Below are positions 17,582 to 26,897 of a stretch of 36,088 nt of DNA, piece after piece (position 1 is the first letter of the stretch; each line of letters starts with the position of its first letter). The notes under the pieces are model-generated. The model made no database searches. It was given only the letters and a program-made list of their open reading frames with translations, and was not told the DNA's origin. The stretch is from the NCBI GenBank assembly GCA_963932775.1, contig CAWVVG010000003.1:1-36088 (forward strand), read 5' to 3'. Both the position numbers and the translations under genes were made by a program. Source of the stretch: an uncultured bacterium. Its GTDB lineage: Bacteria > Myxococcota_A > UBA796.

Positions 17582-18415
17582 TTAGGATCGCCTCAATCGG
17601 TCTGCGACTGCCCGTGCGCTGGGTCGGTCATTGGGCACCTTTTCCAACATATTTGCCACGATCTGGGCCACTGAGTTGGGTAGGTCGGCCACGAGCCCGT
17701 GGAGGAGCATTGGCGTTTCGGTGAGGTGCAGGTTGATCAGCGCCTCTGTGGTGTCGGCTTCGAATGGTCTCTTTCCGCTCAACATGCGGTAGAGCAACAC
17801 ACCGAGGGCATAGACGTCGGCATGACCGTCGATGGGCAGTCCTTGGATTTGTTCCGGAGGCGCGTAGGTGTAGGTTCCAATGAAGTGTCCGGCTCGCGAT
17901 GGCAGGCGCTCCATGACCACGGAGTCGAAGTCTATGATGCACGCGCTGTGGTCTTCGCGAACCATCACATTGGCCGACTTGATGTCTCGGTGAATGACGT
18001 GGTTCTGGTGGAGGTAGTCGAGGGCTTCGGCCACCTGGATGGCGATGGTAATAACGGCGGTGGTCCGTTTTTCTGATCCTGGTACTCCCATGGACTTGGC
18101 GAAGACCTGTGCTGGGCACCCACCCACAAAGTCGAGGAGCATATATGCTCGACCGTCGCTGGTTTCACCGCACCGGTGGGACTTGAGTACGCCCGGGTGA
18201 TCAAAAGTGGAGAGGGCCCGGTGAATGTGCTCGAGTCGGGTTCGGGCGTGGGGCTCAGGTGAGGTGAGCTTCAGGGCGAAGATCTCGCCAGTTTCGGGAT
18301 CTTCGACCTGGTATACGGCACCCATGCCACCCTGGGCAACGTGCCGGATAATGCGGTATCGACCGATTTTAAAATCGCTGTTGGATTCGAATGAGTCGGG
18401 TGGTTGGGTGGTCAC
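17582..18415 (-). CDS. Stand-alone Ser/Thr protein kinase domain (degenerate motifs)
   Basis: Motifs AQGGMGAVY, ALK, HRDIKSANV, DFD, GTYTYAPPEQ and ADVYALG. GTG overlaps the upstream TGA. Confidence 0.88.
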   Translation of the reverse strand: MTTQPPDSFESNSDFKIGRYRIIRHVAQGGMGAVYQVEDPETGEIFALKLTSPEPHARTRLEHIHRALSTFDHPGVLKSHRCGETSDGRAYMLLDFVGGCPAQVFAKSMGVPGSEKRTTAVITIAIQVAEALDYLHQNHVIHRDIKSANVMVREDHSACIIDFDSVVMERLPSRAGHFIGTYTYAPPEQIQGLPIDGHADVYALGVLLYRMLSGKRPFEADTTEALINLHLTETPMLLHGLVADLPNSVAQIVANMLEKVPNDRPSARAVADRLRRS

Positions 18416-19821
18416 CAGCGGGCGTCCTCAAGATGGGTCTGCGGGTCGGAGATGGTGGCCCAATCATAGGCTCCGCCTCTCTGATGGGGAAGTGCCTTTT
18501 GGACATTGAGCCAAAGCCTGGCATCTTGGGCGTCCTTCAACTCAATGATTTGACCTTCTGGGGCCGATGCTCGGACCTCGAGCAGAATGAATGGAATATC
18601 GGGCCCCAAGCGGAAGTCTCGACGGCCGTTCAGCCAACCACTGAGGACCACGGCTGCTGGGTCCAGTGTCGGTGGCCCATCCCACCACACCCGGTCTACC
18701 CACAGCGCGGTGGTGGGCAGTTCAGCGGACACTCGGTCATGGCGGGCGACCGCGCCCAGATCTGGACCCACGGGCAAGCGGTGGTGGGTCTGGACCACAA
18801 ATGCCACGGCACCTACAATGGCCAAAGGCCACAGTCGGGCGAGCCCAATGCCAGCGGCTACAGCGAACGGAACCGCAGCGATGCGAAGATGGTAGCTCCG
18901 AATGTATCCAGTGAACAGACCGAGCAGCATCAGGCCGATCACGCCGGCGAGGGCAAATTGACCGGCCTTCCGATGTGCTGAGATGCGGCACATAAGGACA
19001 GCTGCGAGACCAGCGAGCACCACCCAGACTCCCCAAGCCAGGTCACCCGTACTCCGGTCGTGAATGGTGGTGGTCGCCAATGTGAGCCATGGAATGGGCT
19101 CGGTCACGTTGCTCTGAGCGACCCGGCTTAAGCATGTGGAAATGCCTTCTCCACAGTTGGCGAGGAGGCCCATTCGGATGAGGCGGGGAACGGCGACCAG
19201 TGCGCCGATCATGAAGGCTTGTCGCAGGCGGCGGCCGCCCACCGCTTGATGCATCGCTGGTATCAAGAGAATCAACCCGAGCCCGAACCCGAGGGCAAGT
19301 GGGTGGTGTCCTGCGGCGGCGATGAGGGCACCAAAGGCCAGGGCGGGTGCCCAGGGATGGGCTCGAAGGCTGAGCGCCGCCGCCAGGGTCATGACCCCAA
19401 TGAGCTCCGGCGCCCCATAGGAGCGGGCACCGCTCACCAGGGTGTCCAAGAGGCCCGGGTCGAAGGCCAGAAACAATCCGGAGGCCAAGGCCCCTGCCCA
19501 CCTTCTGGCTGTGGATGCCTCGGGATCGGTCCAGTGGTACGCGGCGGCAAAGCCGATGGGTGCGACCAGTCCACCCAAAATGAACCGACCCTGGAGCAGC
19601 TCTGTGAGCGAGCCGGTAGCAGCCACAAGTGGTACCGCCATAATCCACAGAGCATCCCCGCTCTCCGGGTTGGGTGGTCGGGGCAGGTGACCGAACAGCG
19701 CGGCTTGTGCTTGTAGATAGGGCCCGAGACTGTCGGAACTTACGATGGCCTCATCGAAGACTCTCAGTCGATGCCAAGCGGCGATCACCCACAGGGCGAT
19801 CATGGTGAGAAAGCGGATCAC
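18412..19821 (-). CDS. Multi-pass membrane protein, possible GT-C (PMT/ArnT-like) glycosyltransferase
   Basis: About 10 hydrophobic segments, an acidic residue in the first loop (SSDSLGPY) and a short soluble C-terminus. Starts 9 nt after the hscA stop. Confidence 0.5.
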   Translation of the reverse strand: MIRFLTMIALWVIAAWHRLRVFDEAIVSSDSLGPYLQAQAALFGHLPRPPNPESGDALWIMAVPLVAATGSLTELLQGRFILGGLVAPIGFAAAYHWTDPEASTARRWAGALASGLFLAFDPGLLDTLVSGARSYGAPELIGVMTLAAALSLRAHPWAPALAFGALIAAAGHHPLALGFGLGLILLIPAMHQAVGGRRLRQAFMIGALVAVPRLIRMGLLANCGEGISTCLSRVAQSNVTEPIPWLTLATTTIHDRSTGDLAWGVWVVLAGLAAVLMCRISAHRKAGQFALAGVIGLMLLGLFTGYIRSYHLRIAAVPFAVAAGIGLARLWPLAIVGAVAFVVQTHHRLPVGPDLGAVARHDRVSAELPTTALWVDRVWWDGPPTLDPAAVVLSGWLNGRRDFRLGPDIPFILLEVRASAPEGQIIELKDAQDARLWLNVQKALPHQRGGAYDWATISDPQTHLEDARW

Positions 19822-19830
19822 GCCCCGAGT

Positions 19831-21672
19831 TTACTTCGAGATGCCCAGCTTCTCAGCGACCTCATTGGTGCTTCGGCCCCGTATGGCCAGCTGAAGATCC
19901 CGCTCAATCCGTCGCTGGGCGAAGGGTGCTGTGACCTCATCCACCCTGTGTGAGAGCTCGCTAATTCGCTGCCGGTCGCGGCCTTTCATGGCTTCCTTTA
20001 GCTCGACAACGAGTGCCTGAATCTGTTCCTCTTCACCCGCTTCGAGCATTGCAGCATCGGTGACAATGGCTTTGTCTACTTGGTGAACAATTTGCTCAGC
20101 CTCGATCCGCGCATCGATCAGGAGCCGTTCATCCACATCGGATTCAGCGTGGTCGATCGCTGCCTCCAGCATGGTCTCAATCTCGTCCTCAGACAGGCCG
20201 TAGCTGGGCTGTACATCTACACTGGTGCTTGCCCCGGTCGTCGCATCGGAGGCATTCACCCGAAGAATTCCGTCGGCATCCACCATAAACTCCACCTTGA
20301 TGCGCGGAACCCCAGCGGGCTGCGGCGTGAGGCCGGTCAGCTTGAAGCGCGCGAGGCTCCGGCAGTCACCGACGAGCTCACGTTCACCTTGGACCACATG
20401 GAGGTCCACGGCAGTCTGGTTGTCCGCGTGGGTCGTGAATGTCTGTGACTGGGCGGCAGGGATCGGGCTGCATCGTGGAATTAGTCGTTCAACTACTCCG
20501 CCCATCATCTCGAGTCCGAGACTCAAGGGCACGACATCCAACAGCAGCATGTCGTCCGCGAGTTCGCTGTTTCCAGTAAGGATGTCGGCCTGCATGGCGG
20601 CGCCGAGGGCCACGACCTGGTCGGGATCCAAATCACAATGGGGCTTTCGACCGAACAGGTCCTCTACAAAAGATCGGACCATCGGTATGCGAGTGGAGCC
20701 GCCAACCAAGACCACTTCATCGATGTCGGTGGGCGTGAGTTGTGCATCCTTCAGGGCTTGTAGGCAGGCTGCTCCCGTCCGCTGAACAATGGGTCGAATC
20801 AAGTTCTCAAAACTCGCCCGATCGATTTCAGCCTCAACGACCTGGCCGTTTAAGGTTGCCTGAAGTGTGGTGGTCTCGGAGTCCGTGAGATCGCGCTTGG
20901 CCTGCTCTGCCGCTCGAATTGCGGTTCGATAGGTGATGCCGTCGGCATCGGTGATACCGGCCTGGTTGAGCAATATAGCGGCCAGCGCTTGGTCAAAATC
21001 GTCTCCGCCGAGGTGGGTGTCACCGGCTGTGGAGAGGACCTGAAAGATTCCCTCGTCGAGCTTGAGGATGGAGATATCGAAGGTGCCACCGCCCAGGTCG
21101 AAGACGGCCACAGTTTGATTGTCTTTGCCTTCGTTGAGTCCATAGGCCAGTGCGGCGGCCGTGGGCTCATTGAGCAGGCGAAGTACGTTCACTCCAGCCA
21201 ACTGTGCGGCATCTCGGGTCGACTGGCGTTGGGCATCATCAAAGTAGGCTGGGACGGTGATGACCGCTCCACCAGGACGACCAAATAAGCACTCCTCGGC
21301 CCGGGAATGGAGCAGCCTGAGAATCATGGCGCTGACTTCAGTCGGTGTGACTTCCCCTTCGCCTACACGGAATCGCACCGCCTTGGTGTCGTCCGTAATC
21401 AAATCGTAGCGAAACAGTCGCGCCTCGTCGGCCACTTCGGGGCCAGAGCGCCCCATAAAACGCTTAACGCTCGTGAACGTGGTGCCGCCCTCCTCGGTGG
21501 CCGCCTCGAGGGCTGGGTAGCCCACGGAGACGGGCTTGCCTTCCTCGTTGTACCGGACGGCACTGGGCAGGAGGGCTCGCTCGTCATCATCGAGCAAGCA
21601 GCGTGCCTGCCCGTTGATGATGACTGAAACGAGAGAGTGGGTGGTCCCGAGATCTATACCGATGTTTGCCAT
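19831..21672 (-). CDS. hscA: Fe-S cluster assembly chaperone HscA (Hsp70 family)
   Basis: Motifs [44 protein letters not shown] and [13 protein letters not shown]. Lies immediately after hscB. Confidence 0.93.
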
Positions 21673-21683
21673 ATGGGCTCCGT

Positions 21684-22244
21684 CTACGCGCTGGTTTGGT
21701 TCCGCGCGGTGTTCAAATACTGCAATTTAGCGAGGAGCATCTCGACGCCATCGAGGGATGACTCTCCTGCTTCCCATTTTGAAAAGGTTCGCTCGAGTTG
21801 GCCGTGGTGTGTATCCCACATGTTTTGGACCGTCATTCGAGCGCTCTCTGGATCTGCTGCGCTCATCATCTGAAGGTCAAAGATGGTCTCCAGAAAGTCG
21901 CCATCTGGTTGCAGGCCACCCAGCTCGGGAGGGTGTGGGTTGCCGGTTGCGAGATAGCGGGCCCGACTCAAGGGGTCTTTGAGTATGCGCTTGGCTTCAT
22001 TGATTGCCGCCGTCCACTGCAAGCTCATTCGTCGAAATACTGCAGGCTTTCCAGCCCAGCGATCCGGATGGACTTGCCGAGAGACCGTTCGCCATGCCTG
22101 GTCAATCTGGGTACCGTCCATCGCATAGCTGCGCTTCAGGCCCAAGATCACATAGGGATCAGGCTCGGGTGGTGGCGGCTGAAGCGACGCACACCCGACG
22201 CAGACTGCCCCTTGGGTGGGCTCGTGGCATTGCCAGCAGATCAC
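21684..22244 (-). CDS. hscB: Co-chaperone HscB (J-domain) with N-terminal tetracysteine motif
   Basis: CWQC-x8-CVGC, J-domain [21 protein letters not shown]. Lies between iscA and hscA. Confidence 0.92.
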
Positions 22245-22252
22245 GGGATTCC

Positions 22253-22585
22253 TTAGATGGTGAAAGACTCACCGCAGGAGCAGGACCGGCCGGCTATCGG
22301 GTTGTTGAACTCGAAGCCGCTCTTCATCATGGTTTGAGCGAAATTGATCTCTGTGCCATTCAAGAACAAATAGGACTTTCGGTCGACGGCGAGGACAATG
22401 CTCGGATCACCAAATTCGAAGATTTTATCCTTCTCTTCAGGCACTTCTACGAAGTCCATGAAGTAGGAGAGACCGGAGCAGCCACCACCACGAACTCCAA
22501 CACGCAAGACGGCATCGGGTGTCTGTCGCTTCTTACAGAGCGTGCGGACACGCTTTACTGCGGCTTCTGTCATGGAAACTGCCAT
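22253..22585 (-). CDS. iscA: A-type Fe-S carrier IscA (HesB family)
   Basis: GGCSGLSY and CSCGESF motifs; isc operon position. Confidence 0.95.
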   Translation of the reverse strand: MAVSMTEAAVKRVRTLCKKRQTPDAVLRVGVRGGGCSGLSYFMDFVEVPEEKDKIFEFGDPSIVLAVDRKSYLFLNGTEINFAQTMMKSGFEFNNPIAGRSCSCGESFTI

Positions 22586-22594
22586 GGGTCTTAC

Positions 22595-22981
22595 CTATTC
22601 GCTTTGCTTCTTGGTTTGGTAGTCGTTGATAGCGGCCTTGATGGCATCTTCAGCGAGCACTGAGCAGTGAATCTTCACTGGCGGAAGGGAGAGTTCACGA
22701 GCGATGTCCGCGTTGGAGATCGAGATCGCGTAGTCGATGCTCTGTCCCTTCACCATGGTGGTGATCAAGGAACTGGAAGCGATTGCAGAGCCGCATCCAA
22801 AGGTCTTGAATTTTGCATCCTCGATGATGCCGTTGTCATTGATCTTGAGTTGTAGTTTCATTACGTCACCACAGGCTGGAGCTCCAACCATGCCGGTGCC
22901 TACGTCTGGATCATTTCGGTCGAGGCTACCCACATTGCGGGGGCTTTCTAGGTGGTCGATGACCTTGTCGCTGTATGCCAT
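22595..22981 (-). CDS. iscU: Fe-S cluster scaffold IscU
   Basis: Motifs GAPACGD, FGCGSAIASS and LPPVKIHC (HscA-binding LPPVK). Confidence 0.98.
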   Translation of the reverse strand: MAYSDKVIDHLESPRNVGSLDRNDPDVGTGMVGAPACGDVMKLQLKINDNGIIEDAKFKTFGCGSAIASSSLITTMVKGQSIDYAISISNADIARELSLPPVKIHCSVLAEDAIKAAINDYQTKKQSE

Positions 22982-23000
22982 GAGTCAGTTCCTTGGGGTT

Positions 23001-24224
23001 TTAGTGGGCTGTCCACTGGATTGATTTGAGATCGATGCCTTCCTGCGCCATTTCATAGAGCGGGGACATATTGCGGAGCCATTTGACCTTCTCGACAATG
23101 AGATCGATTGCAAAGTCAATCTCCTCGTCGGTGGTGAAGCGGCCGATACCGAAGCGGATGGATGTGTGGGCCAGCTCAACGTCGACGCCGAGTGCGCGGA
23201 GCACATAGCTGGGCTCGAGGCTTGCTGAGGTGCATGCGGAACCCGATGAGCACGCGATGTCCTTGATCCCCATCATCATCGCCTCACCTTCTACGTAGGC
23301 GAAGCTGACATTCAGGTTGTTGGGAAGGCGATGCTCCCACGATCCATTCAAGTACAGCTCATCGAGTTGTTCTTGGAGCGCGGTCCACAGCTTGTTCCGA
23401 AGGCGCAGTACATTTTCGATGCTGCCATTCTCGAGGTCGAGTTTAGAGAGCTCAGCGGCTTTACCGAAGCCTACAATCTGGTGCACGGGCAGGGTGCCGG
23501 AGCGCATGCCGCGTTCGTGTCCACCACCATCGATGAGCGGTGCCAAGCGAACCCGTGGCCGACCGCGTCGAACCCACAATGCGCCGACGCCCTTCGGACC
23601 GTACATTTTGTGGGCAGAGATGCTGACCAGGTCGACTTTCATCTCGGCAACATCGAATGGAACGCGGCCGAGGCCCTGAACGGCATCGCAGTGAAAAATT
23701 ACCTTGCGTTCACGGCAGCGTGTACCGATTTCAGCGATGGGCTGGATGACGCCGATTTCGTTGTTGGCGAACATGATGCTGACCAAAACGGTGTCTTCAC
23801 GGAAGGCGGCATCGAGCTCATCGAGGTTGATGCGGCCTTGGTCATCTACACCAAGGTAGGTGATCTCCCACCCTTCAGCTTCGAGGGAATGGCAGGAGTC
23901 CAGTACGGCCTTGTGCTCTGTGGCACAGGTAATGATGTGCTTGCCTTTGGCTTCGTAAAACTTTGCAGCACCCTTGATGGCCAAGTTGTTGGACTCTGTG
24001 GCACCAGAGGTAAATACGATTTCTTTCGCATTTCCGCCGATCAGCCCGGAGATTTGTTCGCGGGCGACCTCCACAGCTTCACGTGCAGCCCAGCCGAAGG
24101 CATGGCTGCGGCTCGCCTCATTTCCAAATGATTCGGTGAGGTATGGCCACATGGCTTCCGCGACCTTGGGGTCACAAGGCGTGGTGGCGTGGTTATCGAG
24201 GTAGATGGGGGTATTGACGCTCAT
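23001..24224 (-). CDS. iscS: Cysteine desulfurase IscS
   Basis: Motifs [30 protein letters not shown] (PLP Lys), SSGSACTS (catalytic Cys) and C-terminal IQWTAH. Start set to ATG 24224 with GAGG upstream. Confidence 0.97.
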
Positions 24225-24231
24225 AGTTGCC

Positions 24232-24720
24232 TCAGGAGGGAGCAGCGATTGTGGCCACCATTCGTGGCGCTTCGCTATCGGAGTGGTGATCATCGGTACA
24301 AGACGCACAGGCCTGGACGGGCTCATTCAACGAGCACTGGGTACATGCCTCAAGATATGCGATGGAGGCATTGAGTTCGGCCTCCAAGGACTGTAGGCGG
24401 CTCATGGCGGCCTGGGTCTCGGTGAGCTTGTCGCCATAGAAGCTGCGCAGTGCATCCATGGACTGCGGCCCGGTGTCGCGAGACTGGAAGTCGGTCAGGA
24501 AATTCTTAATGTCGGTGAGAGAGAATCCAAGGTCCTGGAGGCGTTCAATCCAGTGAATTCGGTCCAGCGCGTCGTCGTTGTACATCCGAAACCCACCGGG
24601 ACTGCGGTTAGCAGGATTCAGCAGGCCCAACTCCTCGTAGAAATGGATCGTACGCACAGTTTTCTCTGTGCGCTTGGCCAGTTCGCCGATTCGGTAGGTG
24701 GATGGTGAGGCGCCGGTCAT
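24232..24720 (-). CDS. MerR-family transcriptional regulator with C-terminal Cx2Cx8Cx2C-x3-HH metal/cluster-binding tail
   Basis: Mer[30 protein letters not shown]...RSPGGFRMY and LGFSLTDI, then a coiled-coil dimerisation helix, then [21 protein letters not shown]. Ends 7 nt before iscS. Confidence 0.93.
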
Positions 24721-24731
24721 ACTTGGATTAC

Positions 24732-24753
24732 ACACTAACGTTAACGTAAGGGT
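24732..24753. promoter_or_regulatory. Palindromic operator candidate for the MerR-family regulator
   Basis: Perfect core ACGTTAACGT inside CTAACGTTAACGTAAG (24735-24750), extending to a 22-bp dyad with 2 mismatched pairs. The 16-bp core ends 14 nt upstream of the regulator ATG. Confidence 0.7.
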
Positions 24754-24770
24754 TTGGTTTGCTCGGCTTA

Positions 24771-24799
24771 GTTGTACCCCCGTGTTCGGGGGGTGTCAA
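24771..24799 (-). promoter_or_regulatory. Sigma70-type promoter of the MerR-isc operon
   Basis: Minus strand reads TTGACA-17 nt-TACAAC, immediately after the comEC stop. The spacer contains the inverted repeat CCCCCG-AACA-CGGGGG. Confidence 0.65.
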
Positions 24800-24803
24800 C
24801 GGT

Positions 24804-26897
24804 TTAGGGCAACTGTCGGGAGACCGAGGCCCAGCCAGTTGTGGGGCTCCAGTGTTCTGTTTTGAGGTTCTTGCCATCGCTTTGGAAGCGCAGGGTACCG
24901 AGCATGTCGGTGCGGAGTACCGTTTTAGGGCTCCACCGTTCGAGAACTTCGGCTGCCGGATGACCATATCGATTGTTTTTACCGGCTTGAATTACCGCAT
25001 AAACCGGTGCAGTTCGCTGAATAAAGTCGGTCGAAGATGACGTCTTGGATCCATGGTGGCCCACCTGAACGACCGAGAAGTGAGAGAGGCGGTCGACCAT
25101 ACGCGACTCGGGGCCTGCACCAAGGTCCCCCATAAGTAGAAAGCTGTGAGCTCCAAGGCGTGTACGGATCACAAGGCCCTCGTTGTTGTCGTTGGAACCG
25201 TGGGCGTTGCCAAACACCCCGCTTGGGATTCCTTTTTGGTGGGCGTCTCTCCACAGGTTGTGAAATCGACGCTCATCTACTTTGGGTCGTCGTGGTACCC
25301 ACAGTCGGTGCACCTTGATTCCATCGATCACCTGCGACAGGCCGCCGATGTGGTCGATGTCGGGGTGACTCAAGAACACGGCATCCAGTTCGCGGACTCC
25401 GGAACGCCGGAGCCACTGGCACAGGGCGCTCCCTGGTGGGCCACCATCCACGAGCCATTTTTTTCCATCCGGAAAGGAGATCAAGACCGACGAACCTTGG
25501 CCTACATCGGGAAAGATCACCTCAAATTTAGACGTGTTGTGGGGCGGGAAGAACGCGATCACTCCGAGGAGCAGTGCGATTTTCGGGCGAGACGAGGCAA
25601 AGATGGTGGCGGCAAGCAGGGTTGCACCGATGGGTCCTACCGCCACAGATACCGTTCCCCAGTCAACCCAAGTCAGCCATGTCATTGTCCATTCGACAGC
25701 GCGATCGGCGATGGTCAGAAGATATGGGGCGTTGATGTGGTGCCCCAACAAGCTCATGGGAACGGCGATGCCAGCGAATAAGGGCACAGCGATGAGGTTT
25801 GCCAATGGTGCGCTGGGAGCCACTTGCTGAAATACCCAGGCAGTGACGGGTAGAGTGCCCAGCGTGGCGGCCAGGGTTGCCGCCAAACTTTGTCCGATCC
25901 GGCGGAGCAACCACGGATGTGAGGGGCGGAGCCAAGCGGTTGCCCAGGGCATCCATCCAATCAGTGCGGCCACGGCCCCGAAGGACATCAAGAATCCCAA
26001 CGATGCCACGGCAGATGGGTCCTGCAGCACCACTGCGAGGGCTGCAATACCGATCAGTTGCCACGGGCTAACCCCTCGTCCGACAACGGTGGCTGTGGCG
26101 CCCGCTGCGATCATCCAAGCCGCCCGTTGTGTGGAGACTGGCCAGCCCACGAGGGTTCCATACGTTCCCGCTGCCAACAGAGCGCCCAAGGCCGGCCCCA
26201 GCCGTGCAAGGACGACCCATCCGAAGAGAACCATCGGGCGACTCAACAACCAACCAATAAAGGCACCGCCCGCTGCAACCATGCCCACATGAAGACCGCT
26301 GATGGCCAGCAGGTGAATGGTGCCAGTATTTCGCAAGAGAGTGAGCTGTGGACTGGGGACTTCACCTCGGTCACCGGTCGCGAGGGCCTTCAGAATGGGC
26401 GCGTATAGAAGCCCCTCGGCATTCGTGGTCTCCTCCGCGTCGACCGATTGTCCCACCCAGCTTCTCACCCTCACTGGAAGCGCCTTGGCTAGGCGGGGCC
26501 TGCGTTCGGATTGCCAGCCACCCGGAAGCACGGGGCGGGCTCGTCCGGGAACGACGTCTGCGCTGATCCATTCTCCTTGTCTGGGCCCTCCGGGTCCAAA
26601 GCGCATCCAGGCCTTGCCCGTGTCGGTTCTAACCATCGCGGACTGGCCACTGGTGCTCAGTACTCGCCCAATCATGGGGCTTCGAAATGCAGGAGCAGCA
26701 GGCTGAAGGTGACCCGCGAACCCTCCCAGCCCCAGCCCAAAGAGGCACAGCCACAGGCTTCGAGTGGGCGTCGGTTGCGACCTCAATATGGCTGCACCCA
26801 TGGCCATGGCCACGGTACTGAACCACAAGGGCACCTCAGGCCAAGTCCACGCTCCGAGTATCGCCCCCACCGCCACCCACCCCAATGGTGCTCGCAT
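24804..26897 (-). CDS. comEC: DNA internalization competence protein ComEC/Rec2
   Basis: Competence-domain motif HLLAISGLHVG and many TMs. Metallo-beta-lactamase domain DVGQG, LVDGG, SHPDIDH, GHHGSKTSS and NRYGHP. GGAGG before ATG 26897. Confidence 0.93.
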   Translation of the reverse strand: MRAPLGWVAVGAILGAWTWPEVPLWFSTVAMAMGAAILRSQPTPTRSLWLCLFGLGLGGFAGHLQPAAPAFRSPMIGRVLSTSGQSAMVRTDTGKAWMRFGPGGPRQGEWISADVVPGRARPVLPGGWQSERRPRLAKALPVRVRSWVGQSVDAEETTNAEGLLYAPILKALATGDRGEVPSPQLTLLRNTGTIHLLAISGLHVGMVAAGGAFIGWLLSRPMVLFGWVVLARLGPALGALLAAGTYGTLVGWPVSTQRAAWMIAAGATATVVGRGVSPWQLIGIAALAVVLQDPSAVASLGFLMSFGAVAALIGWMPWATAWLRPSHPWLLRRIGQSLAATLAATLGTLPVTAWVFQQVAPSAPLANLIAVPLFAGIAVPMSLLGHHINAPYLLTIADRAVEWTMTWLTWVDWGTVSVAVGPIGATLLAATIFASSRPKIALLLGVIAFFPPHNTSKFEVIFPDVGQGSSVLISFPDGKKWLVDGGPPGSALCQWLRRSGVRELDAVFLSHPDIDHIGGLSQVIDGIKVHRLWVPRRPKVDERRFHNLWRDAHQKGIPSGVFGNAHGSNDNNEGLVIRTRLGAHSFLLMGDLGAGPESRMVDRLSHFSVVQVGHHGSKTSSSTDFIQRTAPVYAVIQAGKNNRYGHPAAEVLERWSPKTVLRTDMLGTLRFQSDGKNLKTEHWSPTTGWASVSRQLP

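Follow-up and report, generated by a model that had tools for sequence, protein, structure and literature searches.

Which factor governs the assembly of iron-sulfur (Fe-S) clusters in a bacterium whose isc operon opens with a gene other than iscR? The question is posed by a stretch of 36,088 nucleotides (nt) from an uncultured marine bacterium of the Myxococcota_A, lineage UBA796 (contig CAWVVG010000003.1 of assembly GCA_963932775.1), hereafter the window, in which the gene standing directly before iscS encodes P0001, a regulator of the MerR family. The known control of Fe-S supply and demand is exerted mainly by IscR, SufR and, as recently described, RisR, and many phyla are without a known regulator. 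We propose, with a probability of roughly 0.6, that P0001 is a MerR-fold autorepressor of its own operon, reading the Fe-S status through a loop of four cysteines (plus an Asp-His pair); isc or suf operons of two phyla are headed by members of its family, which probably take over the task that IscR has elsewhere. Two points are new in this analysis, i.e., the suf operons headed by the regulator in a second phylum and the position of the operator, which argues for repression rather than for the classical MerR activation.

The regulator gene, its cysteine motif and its family

The gene and the parts of its product are the following (positions are those of the window; aa, amino acids):

24232-24720, minus strand: MerR-family regulator gene (P0001, 162 aa), from ATG at 24720 to the stop TGA at 24232-24234 (translation, Pfam, homologues)
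24496-24696, minus strand: winged helix-turn-helix (wHTH) DNA-binding domain, residues 9-75 (stretch matched by PF13411; same place in the own-genome search)
24283-24345, minus strand: candidate sensor motif C126-x2-C129-x8-C138-x2-C141-x2-D144-H145(H146) (sequence, conservation in homologues, AlphaFold2 model)
24247-24267, minus strand: conserved C-terminal tail P-x-(M/L)-V-A-(A/T/G)-(I/V) (alignments including suf-linked members; short predicted helix 153-159)

They are followed on the same strand by the genes of the assembly machinery:

23001-24224, minus strand: iscS, cysteine desulfurase (NF010611, 672 bits against a cut-off of 548, and TIGR02006, 650 bits, both over cut-off)
22595-22981, minus strand: iscU, scaffold (TIGR01999, 217.7 bits, over cut-off)
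22253-22585, minus strand: iscA-type gene, A-type carrier (TIGR00049, 110.8 bits, over cut-off)
21684-22244, minus strand: hscB-like gene, J-domain co-chaperone (Pfam DnaJ; HscB models match below their cut-offs)
19831-21672, minus strand: hscA, chaperone (TIGR01991, 772.9 bits, and NF003520, 780 bits, both over cut-off)

An earlier note, based on the letters and their open reading frames (ORFs), had placed a MerR and not an Rrf2 protein in the slot of iscR, 7 nt before iscS, and both parts of this claim were borne out. Indeed, the Pfam matches of P0001 over cut-off are PF13411 MerR_1 (65.4 bits, E 4.9e-18), PF00376 MerR (45.6 bits) and PF09278 MerR-DNA-bind (38.3 bits), and the same scan returned neither Rrf2 (PF02082) nor any other match outside the MerR families; the gap between the regulator stop (24232-24234) and the iscS ATG (24224) measures 7 nt, and the NCBIfam IscS alignment begins at residue 3 counted from that ATG. 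As to the start of the regulator itself, the ORF finder gave a longer frame from a GTG at 24735, which falls within the operator described below, and the nearest homologues are 162 aa long; ATG 24720 is thus the likely start.

P0001 contains four cysteines only (C126, C129, C138 and C141), followed by T-D-D-H145-H146, so that the motif can be written Cx2Cx8Cx2C-x3-HH or -x2-DH; the tail motif described in the note is therefore exact in the translation. Its further statement that the dimerisation helix lacks a cysteine at its start is also correct: in the family profile alignments, which end near residue 118 and thus ahead of the cysteine motif, the helix-start cysteine of MerR (4ua1), PbrR (5gpe) and CadR (6jgf) faces non-Cys columns. 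The AlphaFold2 model (mean predicted local distance difference test score, pLDDT, of 87) comprises the wHTH, a single long helix (residues 84-128) and a short C-terminal helix; C126 lies at the end of the long helix and C129 just past it, the remainder of the motif being placed in a loop. As modelled, the position of the motif is that of the metal- or cluster-binding loop of MerR-family sensors. The Foldseek top matches of the model are MerR-family structures throughout, of generic type, and the ESM Atlas clusters are likewise labelled only as generic "MerR family". At 24337, RNA-library contigs of two runs read G for C, which yields Q128H between the first two cysteines and leaves the cysteines unaffected; P0003 carries His at this position, and Q128H is natural variation.

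The relatives of P0001 form a sizeable group. A word-indexed search retrieved 118 of them, mostly unnamed or named "MerR family", from metagenome-assembled genomes (MAGs) of Myxococcota or "Deltaproteobacteria"; 238 cluster representatives came from an exhaustive profile search (E up to 1e-30), and when one genome per species was scanned, at least 569 relatives were counted. Across 40 aligned sequences C126 and C129 never vary, and C138 is kept in at least 90%. The pattern Cx2C-x6-11-Cx2C occurs in 97 of 119 sequences, with the x8 spacing in 93 of those, and the other 22 are fragments, a three-Cys Firmicutes group or Cx3C variants; among the 148 new best representatives of the profile search, the canonical motif is found in 88, a four-Cys variant in 30 and neither of the two in the last 30 (many of these being truncated). 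A distant group (P0113-P0117; about 35% identity), of which one sequence is named from Desulfosporosinus metallidurans, has only CxxC-x8-C and is without the C-terminal tail.

The linkage to the assembly genes is equally constant, as the note had expected of both the four cysteines and the adjacency to iscS. As the loci taken from each search were those with the highest scores, in genomes related to one another, the counts that follow are not independent. In the best 80 of the at least 569 loci, the regulator gene stands directly upstream of iscS on the same strand 77 times. Of the remaining three, two (L072 and L053) head suf operons and one lies on a contig ending right after the gene; seven further isc-linked copies were found beyond these 80. 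Taken together, the sequence data support the view that P0001 represents a distinct, conserved MerR subfamily with four conserved cysteines and a conserved place at the head of Fe-S assembly operons. Many public MAG records harboring this operon are labelled Klebsiella pneumoniae, Enterobacterales, Alphaproteobacteria or Phycisphaerae (L003, L008, L015, L016, L018 and others); the regulators from such MAGs nest among Myxococcota sequences on the tree, so that the labels of these records look unreliable.

The operator, the promoter and their geometry

Upstream of the regulator gene two further elements were recognized:

24732-24753, no strand assigned: 22-base-pair (bp) operator palindrome, reading ACCCTTACGTTAACGTTAGTGT on the gene strand (repeat search; matrix score 29.9 bits; homologous sites upstream of relatives)
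24771-24799, minus strand: predicted promoter, with TTGACA at 24794-24799, a 17-nt spacer and TACAAC at 24771-24776 (read from the sequence; conserved in the five closest loci)

The palindrome ACCCTTACGT-NN-ACGTAAGGGT is present upstream of the gene in 78 of 81 regions, when at least 14 of the 20 specified positions are required to agree; of the three regions without it, L054 offers next to no sequence ahead of the gene, and L071 and L072 possess shorter variants. Some lineages (L007, L009, L019, L025, L058, L063, L064; G053, G094, G139, G099) possess a 16-bp form, ACCCTTACGTAAGGGT, whose outer arms are identical to those of the 22-bp form and whose centre is 6 bp shorter.

How many such sites are there in the genome? 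A matrix built from 70 sites and applied with a threshold of 14 bits gave a single hit in the 4.15-megabase assembly to which the window belongs, namely the site at 24732-24753 (29.9 bits), while two shuffled genomes gave 4 hits with a maximum of about 21 bits. A matrix trained on isc-linked Myxococcota sites only and then run on the 30 suf loci of the other phylum scored highest, in every one of them, at a position 33-82 nt upstream of the gene (median 28.6 bits, the second-best position having a median of -4.7), which serves as a check without circularity. Because the operator is unique in the genome and the matrix finds its counterpart at all of the suf loci, P0001 looks like a local regulator of its own operon, as far as can be judged from sequence. 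What is found agrees with a local autoregulator, in that the co-oriented adjacency to assembly genes is conserved and the site stands at the regulator's own promoter and nowhere else in its genome.

The matrix scan gave no sign of a wider regulon in this genome, as it found no second site. In five other carrier genomes the 22-bp pattern (up to two mismatches) was matched in two, and the 16-bp variant (up to one mismatch) was found upstream of the regulator in four. A wider regulon is not claimed for these genomes either, the extra matches being about as frequent as those of a reversed-pattern control. Of the five extra places looked at, three fall within long ORFs, one coincides with the start of a P-type ATPase frame and one precedes the ORF of an extracytoplasmic function (ECF) sigma factor by 21 nt.

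The position of the operator with respect to the promoter bears directly on the mode of action. Counted from the T of TTGAC, the palindrome opens after exactly 27 nt in 27 of 78 loci and after 24-29 nt in 37 of them; such loci have a 17-nt spacer and a TA(T/C)AAC -10 element whose last bases open the palindrome, and in several loci two boxes flank a promoter of this kind. In the window and in its five closest relatives the sequence (C/G)GTTGACA, with a -10-like element 17 nt downstream, is conserved but stands further upstream; the palindrome of the window starts 46 nt after TTGAC, about 17 nt past the predicted -10. The classical layout of MerR activation, with the palindrome centred in a spacer of 19-20 bp, was thus not found with the promoter elements as predicted. 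Such a placement, on the -10 element and start site or shortly past them, is that of a repressor, and it is this location of the operator, rather than one in the spacer, that makes us read P0001 as an autorepressor.

The upstream neighbour of the regulator is a comEC-like gene ending at 24804. Within the 17-nt spacer (24777-24793), directly after the comEC stop, there is an inverted repeat CCCCC-N7-GGGGG, and four of the five closest loci (L002, L003, L004, L006) also have GGGGGTA immediately ahead of the -10; the repeat may serve as a terminator-like hairpin of comEC or as an element of the promoter.

Near-identical contigs covering the gene were found in four seawater metatranscriptome runs from four studies. 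One RNA-library contig of 2,784 nt corresponds to 22066-24849, i.e., to part of hscB, iscA, iscU, iscS and the regulator, with a word depth of 36.8, against about 2 for the small contigs in comEC. The isc-regulator region is represented in RNA libraries, and nothing beyond that is shown by these contigs, which reveal neither transcript ends nor a single transcript; RNA libraries, moreover, can contain DNA; contig ends with adapter letters (24745, 24535, 23450) are uninterpretable, and the uncovered stretches of comEC are no evidence.

The suf operons, the paralogues and the other regulators

The two suf-linked loci recovered among the best 80 showed the order regulator, sufA-type carrier, sufC, sufB and class-V aminotransferase (L072) and regulator, sufA-type carrier and sufC, in which the locus ends (L053). 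In the phylum of L072 a homologue (E up to 1e-20) is present in 57 of 101 sampled genomes, and in the 30 suf-linked loci fetched from it the gene always precedes sufC-sufB, with sufA in between in 29. The corresponding proteins all keep Cx2C-x8/9-Cx2C and the tail E/P-P-x-L-(V/L/I)-x-G, and 29 of the 30 also x2-D-H after the fourth cysteine. A quick maximum-likelihood tree unites the 32 suf-linked proteins in a single clade, with a Shimodaira-Hasegawa-like approximate likelihood ratio (SH-aLRT) of 99, beside the isc-linked clades, the backbone being unresolved. The presence of one suf-linked clade beside isc-linked ones suggests that the regulator moved between the isc and suf machineries at least once. 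Rrf2 regulators, too, are reported in PMC9973013 to have moved between assembly machineries.

There are also copies away from isc and suf, seven in all. Six of them (L124, L126, L128, L130, L132 and L136) are second copies in G095, G075, G070, G140, G145 and G110, respectively; they keep four similarly arranged cysteines, a tail F/E/M-P-D/E-(L/M/I)-(V/I) and a related palindrome upstream. The seventh, L134 (G053), is a more distant copy adjoining GTP cyclohydrolase I. The downstream gene was scanned in six of the seven, leaving out L128, and in five of these six (L124, L126, L130, L132 and L136) it encodes an ECF sigma factor. A 16-bp box is likewise placed 21 nt before an ECF sigma ORF in G105 (L085).

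Does the regulator stand in for IscR, as the earlier note had it? For its own genome the data agree with this: in an assembly 91% complete there is no Rrf2 match over cut-off, the sole one (24.8 bits, cut-off 30) lying inside a 433-aa frame on another contig, and no SufBD match. As a general rule it is not supported, since 27 of the 39 carriers of the regulator in the phylum keep an over-cut-off Rrf2 gene. These 39 carriers come from a sample of 151 genomes, which are related and not independent, and the distribution is strongly clade-bound (11 of 11 genomes in one family, 0 of 13 in another). Ten of the sampled genomes are without any Rrf2 match, and eight of them carry the regulator; four more, which fall among five carriers, have sub-cut-off Rrf2 matches only. 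Genomes without an over-cut-off Rrf2 gene thus amount to 12 of 39 carriers vs. 2 of 112 non-carriers (12 of 14 such genomes being carriers), which, in related genomes, amounts to a tendency only. The genome of the window further contains three MerR_1 matches, the regulator included, and, elsewhere, three Fur-family genes.

The proposed mechanism, its rivals and the flanking genes

The repression, the direction of the switch and the nature of the cofactor that we infer would combine as follows. P0001 would act as a homodimeric MerR-fold factor dedicated to the operon regulator-iscS-iscU-iscA-hscB-hscA. The homodimer would bind the 22-bp palindrome, which in most relatives would overlap the transcription start together with the 3' part of the -10, and, once bound, would block RNA polymerase, giving autorepression rather than the classical untwisting of an overlong spacer. 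The sensor would be the four-Cys (+Asp-His) loop, placed at the site of the [2Fe-2S] cluster in SoxR and of the metals in CueR and ZntR. When Fe-S assembly is sufficient, the loop would be loaded, most likely with an Fe-S cluster made by the products of the operon itself, and the operon would be repressed; a shortage or oxidation of clusters would leave the protein in an apo or damaged form, which would release DNA, and the operon would be induced. The feedback logic of IscR, RisR and SufR would in this way be executed by a different fold.

Several observations weigh against this proposal. The counts of loci, as said, come from related, best-scoring genomes. A pair of CxxC units separated by 8 residues is characteristic, too, of mononuclear sites of the Zn or rubredoxin type, so that, judging from the motif, the loop might contain an Fe-S cluster, Fe or Zn, or might be a thiol switch; the loop itself is modelled at a pLDDT of only about 65, and the C-terminal 53 residues have no PDB sequence match at E up to 10. 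Moreover, we are unsure of the promoter assignment in the window: a consensus scan for sigma-70 promoters and terminators found none between 24150 and 24900 (TACAAC is not called because the scan demands that the -10 end in T), the 2,784-nt RNA-library contig reaches 24849, past the predicted -35, and the operator lies here downstream of the predicted -10 without overlapping it. The ECF-linked paralogues with the same motif suggest that the sensor may read a more general redox or metal signal. Finally, other factors may co-regulate the operon, namely the Rrf2 proteins of the 27 carriers that also hold such a gene and, in the genome of the window, those encoded by the three Fur-family genes.

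How does P0001 compare with the systems already known? Its fold and dimer architecture are those of SoxR (Foldseek 2zhg; profile match E 1.9e-10), with which it shares four cysteines in the loop directly after the dimerisation helix and a palindromic operator of about 20 bp. The spacing of the cysteines is Cx2CxCx5C in SoxR. In P0001 it is Cx2Cx8Cx2C-x2-DH, and, unlike in SoxR, the operator lies at or after the -10 and not inside an overlong spacer, and the target is its own Fe-S assembly operon and not soxS or efflux genes. With IscR, an Rrf2 protein with a [2Fe-2S] cluster whose gene opens iscRSUA, it has in common the leading place in the isc operon, only a few nt ahead of iscS, a site in its own promoter and, presumably, the same feedback logic; it differs in its unrelated fold, in its ligand motif and in having one site only in its own genome, with no sign of a wide regulon such as that of IscR.

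The third term of comparison is RisR of Myxococcus xanthus, which, according to PMC9973013, is an Rrf2 protein with a [4Fe-4S] cluster, is encoded at the head of the suf operon and, in its holo form, represses both isc and suf; its site is GAC-N7-GTC, and the isc operon of M. xanthus is without a regulator gene of its own. P0001 resembles it in the probable role of Fe-S biogenesis regulator, in the phylum and in the gene heading an assembly operon, whereas its family has the MerR fold and occurs in other clades of the phylum (the 39 carriers mentioned above). The word "MerR" does not occur in that paper, its one match in PMC11631912 belongs to a cited author called Merritt, and no description of a MerR-type regulator of isc or suf operons was found in the full-text literature within reach, i.e., outside subscription journals and supplements; the view that the system is undescribed is in agreement with this.

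The NCBIfam scores of P0001 are all below the equivalog cut-offs of SoxR, ZntR, CueR, MerR, CadR/PbrR and HspR, and in the case of SoxR (TIGR01950) amount to 46.6 bits against 116.9. By the sequence features compared, P0001 falls outside every named MerR subfamily. It is like IscR, RisR and SufR in presumed logic and in gene position and like SoxR in fold and sensor position, and it is a member of neither group.

Among the alternatives, a Zn-thiolate or thiol-disulfide switch, in which oxidants would trigger the release of Zn or the formation of a disulfide, leading to derepression and hence to Fe-S assembly for repair, is the main rival, although we hold it to be unlikely. The CxxC-x8-CxxC spacing, typical of mononuclear Cys4 sites, speaks for it, as do the best NCBIfam similarities (ZntR, CueR and MerR, all below cut-off) and the paralogues with the same motif and a related palindrome that precede ECF sigma genes, in five of the six scanned, which is a typical stress-response layout. 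It is less easily reconciled with the tight, exclusive link to isc and suf in two phyla, with the lack of oxidant-defence genes in the flanks checked and with the conserved Asp-His after the fourth cysteine, which recalls the mixed ligation of Fe-S sensors; none of these points is decisive.

The same Cys4 argument might be invoked for a direct iron sensor, binding mononuclear Fe(II) in the fashion of rubredoxin, so that the operon would follow the labile iron pool; the earlier note had allowed for Fe sensing, and the iron need of the operon makes an iron signal plausible. However, the known Fe(II) sensors of bacteria, such as Fur and DtxR, use sites rich in N and O, the genome of the window already has its three Fur-family genes, and the logic would be awkward: to repress at high iron would make sense, but the induction of an iron-consuming machinery at low iron runs elsewhere through cluster sensing. 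We consider this idea distinctly improbable.

A heavy-metal (Zn/Cd/Cu) activator of the MerR type, inducing Fe-S assembly through spacer distortion when clusters are poisoned, appears very improbable. P0001 does share with the sensors CueR, ZntR, MerR and CadR-PbrR the best sequence similarity and the place of the sensor loop; its best NCBIfam similarity is ZntR (73.9 bits, cut-off 143), followed by CueR and MerR, and one source names the homologue P0051 "Zn(II)-responsive regulator of zntA". We also take the arms of the palindrome, ACC..T...A..GGT, to resemble the operators of these sensors. Nevertheless, the scores of the group (73.9/143, 70.5/168, 69.2/147, 68.4/151 and 61.5/151) fall far under cut-offs of 143-168 bits, and P0001 has no helix-start cysteine, no efflux gene linked to it in the loci examined, 17-nt spacers and a palindrome at or after the -10.

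A chaperone-titrated repressor resembling HspR/DnaK, in which HscA would bind the hydrophobic C-terminal tail and free HscA would be the co-repressor, is largely rejected and hardly credible: HspR, a MerR-family repressor whose dependence on DnaK reportedly lies in a hydrophobic C-terminal tail, is likewise encoded in an operon with an Hsp70/J-protein pair, as P0001 (a repressor by inference) is with HscA and HscB, and the P-x-M/L-V-A-A tail is conserved, but the suf-linked members keep the tail with no hscA or hscB among the suf genes seen beside them, so that the family also heads operons without chaperone genes, the operator is different, and the HspR model (NF047375) reaches 28.3 bits against a cut-off of 105, in the HTH region alone. 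HspR is without a Cys motif.

The proposal of a cluster-sensing MerR autorepressor can be carried a step further, although here we are more tentative and would put the odds somewhat short of even. MerR might be the third independent fold, in addition to the Rrf2 fold (IscR, RisR) and the SufR type, to have been used as a cluster-sensing master switch of Fe-S assembly, with an undescribed Cys4(+Asp-His) Fe-S loop and repression from a non-classical operator position; it would serve isc in several Myxococcota lineages and suf in a second phylum, and the ECF-linked paralogues would extend the sensor to a wider stress response. If the autorepressor reading is true, Fe-S assembly came under feedback control a further time, on a new scaffold that hundreds of species of two phyla possess, the MerR family contains a second kind of possible Fe-S site beside that of SoxR, and a MerR protein of the metal-sensor type acts as a plain repressor. 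Since the family is now labelled by the sources generically or as a Zn/Cu regulator, the finding would also give annotators a name for it.

Beyond the operon, neither a ferredoxin nor an iscX gene was seen directly after hscA. The place is taken by an ORF of 469 aa (18412-19821, minus strand), with a hydrophobic-looking translation and no Pfam match, and the next gene (17582-18415, minus strand) encodes a Ser/Thr protein kinase.

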